Made by a program: the position numbers and the translations under genes
NCBI GenBank assembly: GCA_947631035.1
Contig: CANRJW010000003.1
Coordinates: 1-63,830, forward strand
Direction of reading: 5' to 3'
DNA: 63,830 nt
Source: an uncultured Bacilli bacterium
Lineage (GTDB): Bacteria > Bacillota_I > Bacilli_A > RF39 > UBA660
Notes under the pieces: model-generated
Told to the model about the DNA's origin: nothing
The model's database searches: none
The model's input: only the letters and a program-made list of their open reading frames with translations
Shown: piece by piece, positions 58,270 to 59,999 of the stretch
Position numbering within the stretch: position 1 is the first letter of the stretch
How the letters are laid out: each line of letters opens with the position of its first letter

Positions 58270-58298
58270 TTGTCAAAATTGGAAAAAGAGTGTAGAAT
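58270..58298 (+). promoter_or_regulatory. Conserved cassette promoter (TTGTCA-17-TAGAAT), paralog 3
   Basis: Same hexamers and spacing as the other copies. RBS GGAGGA at 58312-58317 and ATG at 58325. Confidence 0.6.
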
Positions 58299-58355
58299 TA
58301 GATTAAGATATGGAGGAAAGAGAAATGAATAGTTTCAAAAAGAACCTCCCAACCA

Positions 58356-59999
58356 GTGAAAATAGTCGTCTGGGGGGGGGGTCTATTAAATAATAGAAAA
58401 CCAGAGGACTTAAAGCGGTTTAACAAAAATAAGAAACAAAAACAAATAATAATAGGAAGCATAATAGCAATTGTATTAATAATCGGAGGTATAAGTCTAT
58501 ACCGAAGTTTTGCTATGTATGAAGAAAAGGCTTCTTTTGATGTCTTGAAAGGCACAGTACCAGATTTTAGTACAAAAGATATAAACTTGGCTTTTACCAT
58601 AGACGGACAAACCCAAACGAATACTAAATTTCCAAATAAAGGTGATGGCTATATAGTAGAAGAAGTTTCATGTGAAGATAATGTAACAGCCACATGGAAT
58701 AGTAGTACATGGAGTTTAGAGAACATAGAAAATAAAGGAGAAGCCAAGAAAGTAAAATGTACAGTAGCATTTAAAACATCAAAAGGAGAGCCAATATTAA
58801 ATGGAGCAGACCCAGTATTAGGAGATGGAATGATACCTGTTACAATAGGAGAAAAAGGAGAAGTAACAAAAGTAAAACCTGAAAGTGGAGGGTGGTATAG
58901 TTACGAAGATAAAGAGTGGGCCAATGCTGTAATATTAACAGAGTCTGCTAAAAGTTATGAAGATAATGAAAAAATATCAGAAGAAGATATCGAAAGTTAT
59001 TTTGTATGGATACCAAAATATAGTTATCGATTATTTGATGAACAATTAGGAAAATATACTTCTGCGACAGGAATAGTCAGCAAAAATAATTTAGCAATAG
59101 AAATACGATTTGGTTTAGAAAATACAAAAGATTCAAAAATCTATAGAGAATGCGAAACTCCAATGTTAGAGAATAAAGTACAAGGAGCAAGTGGAGAAAG
59201 TGGAAATTGCCATTATGAGGATTGGATGACGCATCCTGCATTTCTAGCCTTTGGAGGAAATGGTTTATGGGTAGGTAAATTTGAAACAAGTAATGCTGGA
59301 GAAAATAAAATACAAATCAAGCCTAATGCAACTAGCTGGTTGAATATTACAATGGGAGATTCTTTTAGAAATTCTCAAAACTATATGCCTAAGTTACAAA
59401 GTCATAATATGAAGAATACGGAATGGGGAGCCGTAGCTTATTTAACCCAAAGTATCTATGGAAGATGTGAAAATGAAAATAATTGTACAGAAGTATCAGC
59501 GAATACAAATAGTTATAAAACTGGATATACAGGAAATACAGCCTATGGTGAAAGTAGTGAACAACTAGCAAGTACCACGGGAAATTATAGTGGAATATAT
59601 GATATGAATGGAGGAGTATGGGAGCAAGTGGCAAGTGTTGTGTTGAATAATCTTAGTACAACACCAATTTGGAGTTCAAGCGGTTTATCAGATACTGATT
59701 TAACTAAGGAAAATGCAAAATATTATGATGTTTATAATTATGGAACAGACCATTCGCATTGGGAAAGGAGAATATTAGGAGATGCTACCGGTGAAGTTGG
59801 ACCATTTGCACCATTCAATACCTTTTATAAAAGTTCAATGTGGGATGATATCGCTCGCTTAGCCTATTCGTCTTATCCTTGGATTCATCGTGGTGGCTTC
59901 GGTGGCGATGGAGTGTCTTCTGGAGTATTTGCTTTTTCTCCAGATGATGGTCGTGCAACTAGTAACAAGGGTTTCCGCATCGTCCTTGCCACAAAATAA
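58356..59999 (+). CDS. FGE-sulfatase-like surface protein paralog 3; the RBS-served ATG at 58325 is out of frame at G10
   Basis: TM IIIGSIIAIVLIIGGISLY. Motifs NMKNTEWGAVAYL, GIYDMNGGVWEQV, HRGGFGGDG, FRIVLAT. The ORF-track GTG at 58356 lies inside the conserved leader and has no RBS. Confidence 0.6.
   Translation: MKIVVWGGGLLNNRKPEDLKRFNKNKKQKQIIIGSIIAIVLIIGGISLYRSFAMYEEKASFDVLKGTVPDFSTKDINLAFTIDGQTQTNTKFPNKGDGYIVEEVSCEDNVTATWNSSTWSLENIENKGEAKKVKCTVAFKTSKGEPILNGADPVLGDGMIPVTIGEKGEVTKVKPESGGWYSYEDKEWANAVILTESAKSYEDNEKISEEDIESYFVWIPKYSYRLFDEQLGKYTSATGIVSKNNLAIEIRFGLENTKDSKIYRECETPMLENKVQGASGESGNCHYEDWMTHPAFLAFGGNGLWVGKFETSNAGENKIQIKPNATSWLNITMGDSFRNSQNYMPKLQSHNMKNTEWGAVAYLTQSIYGRCENENNCTEVSANTNSYKTGYTGNTAYGESSEQLASTTGNYSGIYDMNGGVWEQVASVVLNNLSTTPIWSSSGLSDTDLTKENAKYYDVYNYGTDHSHWERRILGDATGEVGPFAPFNTFYKSSMWDDIARLAYSSYPWIHRGGFGGDGVSSGVFAFSPDDGRATSNKGFRIVLATK
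58372..58381 (+). repeat. G10 homopolymer in the 5' leader, paralog 3
   Basis: cgtctGGGGGGGGGGtctatt. The ATG-58325 frame stops at 58391-58393. G9 or G12 would fuse it to the 547-aa ORF. Confidence 0.8.

Follow-up and report, generated by a model that had tools for sequence, protein, structure and literature searches.

Organization of the locus

The 63,830-nucleotide (nt) stretch of DNA analysed here, referred to below as the window, belongs to an uncultured Bacilli bacterium (contig CANRJW010000003.1) and carries at 58270-59999 a gene whose short leader and long body lie in different reading frames and meet at a run of ten guanines (G10). This gene is one of three paralogs in the window that are headed by the same promoter, Shine-Dalgarno (SD) sequence, leader and G10 tract. 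As argued below, it is probably a phase-variable gene for a surface protein, in which the length of the tract sets the reading frame. The coordinates of the features are given in Table 1.

Table 1. Features of the studied locus and of the related copies in the window (ON, leader and body in frame; OFF, out of frame; aa, amino acids; ORF, open reading frame)
Feature	Position	Strand	Description and basis
Promoter, sigma-70-type	-35 at 58270-58275, -10 at 58293-58298	+	TTGTCA, 17-nt spacer, TAGAAT; promoter scan, 10/12 matches
Shine-Dalgarno GGAGG	58312-58316	+	8 nt 5' of the ATG; read directly
Leader frame at G10	58325-58393	+	ATG 58325-58327, product MNSFKKNLPTSENSRLGGGSIK, TAA 58391-58393; translation
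Two-tier hairpin	58344-58382	+	RNA fold of 58296-58400, -26.3 kcal/mol, z -3.5
Body ORF	58356-59999	+	547 aa from an upstream GTG, +1 frame relative to ATG 58325; ORF list
G10 homopolymer	58372-58381	+	frame-setting tract; G9/G12 ON, G8/G10/G11 OFF
Paralog 1	38062-40252	+	ATG 38119, G10 38166-38175, 707-aa +1-frame ORF; 710 aa at G9
Paralog 2	53849-55525	+	ATG 53906, G10 53953-53962, second 1-nt deletion near 54030-54036
Fourth cassette, tract-less	1-100	+	SD, ATG at 30, ..ACCCTCCCAACC.., CTGCGGAAAGG in place of the G run

After its ATG, the leader continues with the codons AAT AGT TTC AAA AAG AAC CTC CCA ACC AGT GAA AAT AGT CGT CTG, runs through the tract and ends with TCT ATT AAA TAA, which makes 22 codons in all. 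An earlier reading of this DNA from its letters alone (the sequence-only reading) had the same leader and the same stop, with a version of the product that omitted the last residues, SIK. The G10 sits 48-57 nt after the ATG, and the distance from the ATG to the tract end is 57 nt. We simulated other tract lengths and found that G9 yields a fusion of 557 aa and G12 one of 558 aa, while products of 20-22 aa result from G8, G10 and G11. Translation thus agrees with the sequence-only reading, which had placed the 547-aa ORF in the +1 frame and expected its fusion at G9 or G12.

The biologically meaningful part of the body ORF begins at the tract. Alternative starts for the +1-frame ORF were considered and rejected, because neither the GTG at 58356 nor the TTG at 38129 has an SD sequence at the proper distance and such starts are not conserved in related loci (in the +1 frame, L019 lacks a start altogether and L004 meets a stop within the spacer). 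As there is no conserved, SD-backed start in the +1 frame, the change of frame must happen within the tract.

From the -35 hexamer to the tract, the three window copies have one arrangement in common: TTGTCA, 17 nt, TAGAAT, GGAGG, ATG, ..AAGAACCTCCCAACC..AATAGTCGTCTG10. We refer to it as the cassette. The promoter hexamers and their spacing are identical in paralogs 1 and 2 (38062-38090 and 53849-53877), the GGAGG is invariant in the three copies (GGAGG or GAGGAGG in the cassettes of relatives), and the 57 nt between ATG and tract end recur in all three paralogs, as the sequence-only reading had stated. The window has a GC content of 31% and contains exactly three G/C runs of at least 7 nt; all of them are G10, lie on the + strand and fall within the cassette. 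For runs of G9 or longer, shuffles gave an expectation of 0.02, compared with 6 overlapping matches observed.

Distribution of tract lengths and frame states among related cassettes

Related DNA was retrieved by four routes: the cassette pattern, protein homology, a pattern with anchors on either side of the tract, and the general pattern CTCCCAACY-N10-20-G8-TAYA, which misses tracts of G7 or shorter and slightly under-samples tracts of G11 or longer in the long-spacer classes. The records come from about 13 Illumina metagenome-assembled genomes (MAGs) produced in at least five studies and labelled uncultured Bacilli or Tenericutes, with a few mislabelled Muribaculaceae or Clostridia, and the comparison rests throughout on consensus sequences from metagenome bins. 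The hosts of cassette-bearing genomes include rabbit, laboratory and wild mouse, and Hadza humans; three related loci without a cassette were found in a chicken MAG and in the 'Sandtown' environmental MAG. A scan of JGI metagenomes with the cassette pattern returned zero matches, and no DNA record was found for the homologous proteins P0031, P0111, P0005 and P0019.

Altogether, we counted 115 distinct cassettes, of which 66 were classified as internal (with 150 nt or more of sequence on the 5' side and 600 nt or more on the 3' side). G10 is the most frequent length in both sets, with 79 of the 115 distinct (69%) and 46 of the 66 internal cassettes. The other distinct cassettes carry G6 (3), G7 (2), G8 (11), G9 (14) and G11 (6), and the respective internal counts are 2, 1, 8, 7 and 2. 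A sample obtained by protein homology, and thus blind to tract length, contained 14 G10, 1 G11 and 2 G8. The sequence-only reading had held that a uniform G9 in relatives would make these genes ordinary and intact; such uniformity was not seen. It had also considered coordinated OFF states of the three window loci, which are unneeded given the modal G10, since three independent loci would all have G10 with a probability of about 0.34 (0.70^3) and would all need the same -1 correction with a probability of 0.22.

With respect to frame, 40 of the internal cassettes (61%) need the loss of one base, 10 (15%) are in frame and 9 (14%) need the gain of one base; 5 of the 66 have no long ORF and 2 have no recognisable leader. 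The rule that one length class gives a full protein and the others an early stop holds in more than 50 homologous cassettes, and intact ORFs of 238-710 codons stand behind tracts in all three frame states. In-frame G9 cassettes with intact ORFs of 238-634 aa were identified in L025, L045, L055, L057, L079, L103 and L108. In one rabbit MAG (CANRCV), 4 G9-ON, 1 G6-ON, 10 G10-OFF and 1 G11 cassettes occur together.

G10 is seen as well where length and frame are related differently: the G10 cassettes in L074, L077 and L118 need +1, and the G10 genes in L116 and at the P0081 locus (the positional orthologue of paralog 2) are ON. G10 is thus the preferred length itself, whatever the frame. The idea that selection acts on a length one base above ON was ruled out, as G10 is also found where ON is G11/G8 or G10. 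Interrupted or shortened tracts were observed as well, namely in L021:4079 (GAGGGGGGGG), in L029:3056 (GGAGGGGGG), and in L021:3003 and L112:6664 (G6, in frame). These may be 'locked' alleles, and the G6 in-frame copies look like fixed-ON versions.

The homologous proteins in the database appear in four forms: fused to the leader, read in the +1 frame, shortened so as to begin at the first Met downstream, or with an unrelated start. Among the top 120 protein matches, 4 are leader-fused, 5 are +1-frame calls ('WGGG') and 16 are truncated at the first downstream Met; the +1-frame calls arise from accidental upstream starts (MKIVVWGGG.., MKDQWGGG..). The leader-fused, in-frame proteins include P0031 (MNSFKKNLPTKRNSRLGGGLLENRKPEDL..), P0075 and P0111. 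Together with the in-frame G9 homologues, these proteins support the proposal of the sequence-only reading that the element is an ON/OFF frameshift cassette now at an OFF length.

About 30% of the cassette matches (hand count) lie within 200 nt of a contig end, including those in L003, L020, L028, L030, L033, L035, L041, L042, L050, L053, L060, L062, L071, L076, L098, L114 and L115 and others, and the L020 contig begins with poly-C/G junk ahead of its G10. Because assemblies break at the cassette, tract lengths at contig ends, such as the G9 of L041, are unreliable. This position near contig ends is compatible alike with repeat-induced graph breaks, poor read-through of the G run and length heterogeneity.

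A conserved hairpin that contains the tract

The tract forms part of a two-tier RNA hairpin. In the outer helix, ACCUCCC at 58344-58350 pairs with tract positions G5-G10 and the following U (58376-58382). The inner helix is formed by 58353-58359 and 58366-58373 and includes tract positions G1-G2, and G3-G4 lie opposite AA in an internal loop. This architecture recurs in every cassette, with a CCUCCC 5' arm that pairs with six tract Gs and a spacer that forms an inner helix ending in the first two Gs of the tract (the first four in one class). At least seven different inner-helix sequences keep the pairing, including CCAGUGA/UCG-UCUGG at the 58325 locus, CCAUUG/CAAUGG, CCAGA/UCUGG, GACG/CGUC, AAGAC/GUCU, CUUCAGG/CCUGGGG and UCUAGA/UCUGGG, and the stability of the hairpin across cassettes ranges from -17 to -23 kcal/mol. 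The 5' arm CUCCCAAC is invariant and encodes, as CUC-CCA, the first residues of Leu-Pro-Thr (LPT), though CTC makes up only 2.5% of the Leu codons in the window; the residues encoded between LPT and GGG show no conservation. The CCUCCC of this arm matches the 16S anti-SD sequence exactly, the 3' arm being the G run.

Because the alignment set helix classes such as CCAG../..CUGG and CUUCAGG/CCUGGGG out of register with each other, column-wise covariation was replaced by tests of spacer shuffling and strand asymmetry. Shuffling of the spacer alone gave z from -2.3 to -5 in most G10 cassettes, and 95% of spacer shuffles were beaten by 87% of the 61 distinct G10 cassettes versus 27-45% of the G8/G9 cassettes. 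Cassettes with short or interrupted tracts tend to be without a significant inner helix; it is weak in both of the shortened or interrupted copies given above that were folded and shuffled one by one, L021:3003 and L021:4079. In 61/61 cassettes the sense strand folds more stably than the antisense strand; the mean difference is 7.9 kcal/mol, with about two G-U pairs each, which points to a hairpin that acts in the mRNA or in the G-rich DNA strand.

A search of 58200-58500 against Rfam with E up to 1 gave no match. An intrinsic terminator was considered and rejected, as there is no terminator-like site and the tail is UAUAUUA, not a U run. Further roles of the hairpin, such as masking of the SD-like run, limiting of R-loops or a clamp that would hold the tract near 2+2+6 = 10 Gs, are pure speculation at this stage.

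The encoded protein

We identified 7318 homologues of the body in the protein database, none of which has a Pfam assignment. Paralogs 1 and 2 score 14.9 and 16.0 bits with PF03781 (FGE-sulfatase), paralog 3 has no match, and all three thus fall short of the gathering threshold of 23.3 bits. An NCBIfam search of the family proteins gave no match. The AlphaFold2 model of the protein (P0001), which was built from 32 homologues and has a mean pLDDT of 82.5, predicts a disordered Lys-rich N-terminus, a helix at residues 26-51, a small beta domain and a large domain at 150-547; the helix corresponds to the hydrophobic segment IIGSIIAIVLIIGGISLY and is a predicted transmembrane segment. A Foldseek search with the large domain gave as best PDB matches the variable proteins of diversity-generating retroelements (DGRs), TaqVP (5vf4, E 1.6e-8) and Mtd (1yu0, E 5e-4), followed by EgtB/FGE-like enzymes, with low TM-scores (0.27-0.41) to the structural matches. 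The model thus suggests an N-terminally anchored or secreted protein with a putative ligand-binding ectodomain of the C-type-lectin/FGE fold, and the likeness to the FGE superfamily appears to concern the fold only.

In DGR variable proteins the same fold serves as a ligand-binding scaffold for variable surface display. The difference lies in the source of variation, which here would be paralogy and ON/OFF switching, not mutagenic retrohoming. A reading of the genes as DGR targets was ruled out for the window, which contains no template-repeat-like copy of the three paralogs' 3' ends; a reverse transcriptase elsewhere in the genome was not searched for.

The cassette is not restricted to this type of ectodomain. 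In L045:5765-7114 and in L056 from 4367 onward, the cassette and the N-terminal anchor module stand before unrelated ectodomains, prominent among them the ALK/LTK glycine-rich domain PF12810, and other ectodomains behind them include a DUF6273-like region and several unknown ones. The cassette behaves as a portable 5' module. A further gene with a PF12810 domain lies at L040:2287-3558. No LPXTG is present at the C-terminus of the family proteins, and the leader carries LPT(S/E/K..) as its invariant motif. A gene for a 516-aa protein with a sortase domain (L025:2825-4375) and a glycosyltransferase gene are located directly 5' of the in-frame G9 member P0075.

Phase variation as the favoured interpretation

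We consider the locus to be, more likely than not, a contingency locus with slipped-strand phase variation that is ON at G9 and OFF at G10. In such a locus, the portable promoter-SD-leader-G-tract cassette would front the gene for a membrane-anchored lectin-fold surface protein, and slipped-strand mispairing at the poly-G tract during DNA replication would change its length by a single base and thereby set the frame. With G9 (or G12), the 19-residue leader would be fused to the body and the 557-aa protein made. With G10, the state of the assembly, translation would end three codons past the tract and the gene would be OFF. There are three cassettes and a relic in the window and up to 16 fully assessable cassettes in one MAG (more with those cut by contig ends), and with so many copies per genome each cell would express a small, changing subset of variant surface proteins.

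Several results agree with this scheme. Since ON is one base shorter than the mode in most cassettes, any one locus is expected to be OFF in most cells or genomes; since intact ORFs are found in all three frame states, each of these states must be transient. At 31% GC, about 8% of random codons are stops, and simple arithmetic gives a chance of about 1e-19 for an open frame of 547 codons. The predicted product, with its N-terminal transmembrane anchor and lectin-fold ectodomain, would be of the type that phase variation commonly targets. The data thus show the frame logic, more tracts than chance would give, length polymorphism among homologous cassettes and the existence of ON alleles; high-rate, reversible length change within one population and a role of the family proteins as surface ligand-binders are inferred. 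In Campylobacter jejuni, modal tracts of G9/G10 result from a bias to insertion at G8/G9 and to deletion at G10/G11 (Bayliss et al., PMC3401435), and by analogy a G10 that is preferred in itself would match these modal lengths (PMC3401435).

A number of points weigh against the proposed phase variation. First, we infer the heterogeneity and reversibility at 58372-58381 from MAG consensus sequences, and the sole apparent difference at one locus, G10 in L040 and G9 in L041, was traced to a contig-end overlap with a different paralog. The two contigs are identical over 1.8 kb downstream, and the L041 leader, at the start of its contig, matches that of the paralog at L045:5812; the difference is thus a k-mer overlap and was dropped as evidence. 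Second, the distribution of lengths is narrow, with about 70% of cassettes at G10. In a toy model with the C. jejuni rates, the neutral mode is G9, and constant selection against ON leads to G7/G8, not to G10. An origin of the G10 mode from the published C. jejuni rates was thus rejected, and the mode calls for a mutational spectrum particular to the lineage, for fluctuating selection or for selection acting directly on G10. Third, classical phase variation assigns no role to a conserved sense-strand hairpin that holds the tract.

Alternative explanations

The foremost alternative to DNA-level switching is programmed or exploited recoding on the G10 allele, in which 'OFF' would mean 'low' and the tract length would pick the expression level. 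We regard it as unlikely, and it would mostly be a layer over the switching of the DNA. By a transcriptional route, the nascent hairpin would melt the upstream rG:dC hybrid and let the polymerase realign forward, so that some mRNAs would have G9. By a translational route, the G run would act both as an internal SD-like element and as a series of rare GGG codons, on which the peptidyl-tRNA-Gly would slip by +1 (GGG to GGU).

Much of what recommends this idea comes from the hairpin: the tract is embedded in a conserved structure, with pairing kept in at least seven inner-helix sequences and sense specificity in 61/61 cassettes; the CUCCCAAC arm is invariant despite its rare CTC, next to a peptide interval from LPT to GGG that is not conserved; and where the tract is short or interrupted, a significant inner helix tends to be gone. 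The -1 shift is the correction that 61% of the cassettes require, the GGG codon is minor (8.8% of Gly codons) and the G run is similar to an SD sequence. With an inner helix that ends at G2, 8 nt short of the tract end, the hairpin resembles the stem-loop of the Roseiflexus IS630 element (PMC5009743). However, the frame state is not conserved, since 15% of the cassettes are already in frame and a further 14% call for +1 while retaining intact ORFs and the hairpin. The G10 cassettes of L074, L077 and L118, which need +1 and have the hairpin and ORFs of 577-640 codons, are beyond the reach of -1 slippage, and the hairpin-less P0081 orthologue is in frame at G10. In addition, classes differ in how far the inner helix stops short of the tract end (at G2 or G4), and the 0-frame codon after the tract (UAU/UCU) is not obviously slow. 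Efficient slippage of RNA polymerase is, moreover, known from A/T runs and far less from G/C runs.

The region after the tract can be likened to the frameshift site of prfB, which reads AGGGGG UAU CUU UGA, in having an SD-like run, a 3-nt spacer and a nearby 0-frame stop. Most cassettes have GGGGG UAU AUU AGA AAG UAA here, and the studied locus has GGGGG UCU AUU AAA UAA (58376-58393). The stop lies 3-5 codons past the G run in a position that is not fixed, and the 0-frame codon is UAU or UCU. Of the features that define slippage of the IS630 type, a stem-loop directly 5' of the run is present, and the conserved out-of-frame arrangement is absent (40/66 cassettes need -1). A switch with two layers, in which DNA slippage would set the length and the hairpin on G10 would drive a productive fraction through G9 transcripts or +1 slips, is a tentative extension of the same idea that we would not expect to hold.

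A sequencing or assembly artefact, with true tracts of G9 and ordinary intact genes that have a Gly3 leader, is very unlikely. The sequence-only reading had raised a systematic +1 homopolymer error because all three window tracts need the same -1 correction, and G tracts are indeed difficult templates for Illumina sequencing, contigs often break at the cassette (with the poly-C/G junk at the L020 end), and tract lengths in databases can differ from the majority in the population (PMC9187656). Such an error is contradicted by the occurrence of G8, G9, G10 and G11 cassettes together in single assemblies made by one pipeline, and by the dominance of G10 in MAGs from at least five independent studies and assemblers. 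Of the lengths that these pipelines report, G9 is precisely the one with in-frame alleles. If G10 were a miscalled G9, the intact G9 fusions of 238-634 aa would in turn become out-of-frame G8, and G10 is in frame in L116 and at the P0081 locus (4 contigs). Furthermore, there are 24 cases of A/T runs of 7-8 nt inside intact long ORFs of the window, all without a frameshift, so the assembly has no general homopolymer problem.

Decay of the genes into pseudogenes by fixed frameshifts in a family under loss is highly improbable: it could account for the second frameshift of paralog 2, the tract-less relic at 1-100 and the 5/66 cassettes without a long ORF, but in paralogs 3 and 1 no stop interrupts the 547 and 707 codons of the body despite a random stop rate of about 8%, the tract is in every case the site of the only lesion, and ORFs of 250-640 codons persist in 49 other OFF cassettes.

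Comparison with known systems

The nearest known case for the slipped-strand phase variation proposed here is found in Bifidobacterium breve UCC2003, in which sortase-dependent pilus genes contain intragenic G10-G12 tracts, are annotated in the OFF state, and have a productive length in a minority of genomes (PMC9187656). Both systems belong to Gram-positive gut commensals, in both a G tract splits a short N-terminal ORF with a secretion signal from the body of a surface protein, the reference is out of frame, and the device recurs at several loci and in several species. In contrast to the B. breve pilus genes, the cassette described here is a promoter-leader module common to dozens of genes per genome with different ectodomains, the genome is low in GC, and the tract, known here from consensus sequences, serves as the 3' arm of a conserved hairpin. 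The poly-G/C loci of C. jejuni (PMC3401435) are similar in having G8-G11 tracts in the 5' coding part of genes for surface structures, in a low-GC genome, with a frame that switches by changes of one base and with a narrow mode; however, they are unrelated genes without a shared cassette, and their mode is G9 instead of G10.

The poly-G/C contingency loci of Neisseria and Haemophilus are of the same kind as those of C. jejuni, and we know of no flanking complementary arm or hairpin at the tracts of any of these three genera. In the opa genes of Neisseria and in several Mycoplasma families, the 5' end is conserved, a repeat in or before the leader switches the paralogs independently, and most copies are OFF. 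The repeats are CTCTT pentamers in opa and a promoter poly-A tract in Mycoplasma Vlp, and other families use invertases. As far as this general knowledge goes, these systems resemble the cassette family in the switching of a multigene family at its 5' end, and the proteins are unrelated.

For slippage at the RNA level, the closest parallel is the IS630 element of Roseiflexus, in which a stem-loop is 5'-adjacent to U5C5 and transposase transcripts lack one nucleotide (reviewed in PMC5009743). The likeness consists of a stable nascent-RNA stem-loop directly 5' of the run and of a productive -1 change, which is also what most cassettes require. The differences are that IS630 is fixed out of frame on U5C5, whereas here the frame state varies, the G10 run is itself part of the stem and slippage is only a candidate.

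The hairpin-embedded tract on a shared cassette is a new anatomical feature; the mechanism itself is of a known kind, in a new family and lineage. To our knowledge, a hairpin made of the tract and an anti-SD-like arm has no counterpart in the described contingency loci. Phase variation by homopolymer slippage is textbook knowledge for Campylobacter, Neisseria and Haemophilus and is barely documented in low-GC Gram-positive gut commensals; we know of no documented case in these uncultured Bacilli. One portable cassette appears to place dozens of lectin-fold surface-protein variants per genome under stochastic control, which, if true, would be a major source of antigenic and adhesive diversity within strains of rabbit, mouse and human gut communities. 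The hairpin could also provide a handle on slippage at the RNA level or on the tuning of homopolymer switches by structure. If the doubtful two-layer switch existed, dozens of genes for surface proteins that count as 'OFF' would have low, tunable expression, and it would be the first hairpin-dependent device of G-run slippage and the first that is common to a cellular multigene family, not a mobile element. On the practical side, gene callers truncate or mis-start most genes of the family, and assemblies break at the cassette.

Other members of the family and their genomic context

The window is chromosomal, with rpoB (46500-50171) and rpoC (50168-53809) as well as genes for RmuC, BacA, a class I tRNA synthetase, RecX, PrsA and transketolase, and the three paralogs are dispersed among these housekeeping genes.

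Paralog 2 departs from the common scheme. The sequence-only reading had assigned the same G10, the same -1 correction and the same OFF state to all three copies; the lengths and the -1 offset stand, while paralog 2 at G9 still stops after 46 codons. Its body (54098-55525) is in frame 0, and the 23 codons between the tract and the second deletion (caaat-atcattgg, compared with caaataataatagg in paralog 3) are in the +1 frame. Paralog 2 is thus probably a pseudogene, non-functional at any tract length, unless the deletion is an assembly error. Its positional orthologue in another species, P0081 (L125:237-1823, L126), is intact; the order of that gene, recX and prsA is syntenic with 53906-57494 of the window, and its leader is different and shorter (MKKVKKTK) and has neither the CCUCCC arm nor the hairpin.

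The contig starts within the tract-less, degenerate cassette, which has a leader that reads ..CCCTCCCAACC.. and MKKMKKTLPTQLSDSL.. and contains CTCCCAAC, and no family gene follows on its 3' side. It is either a relic cassette or the product of an assembly break at the repeat.

Some members of the family have no cassette and use a start of their own. Three of them, at L040:9655-11599, L044:3452-5587 and L045:3666-5683, are accompanied by a small divergent gene of the HTH_3/HTH_19 (Xre) type, and a fourth, at L043:4212-6441, by a small divergent gene without a Pfam match. These cassette-less members suggest a second, conventional mode of regulation in the family.

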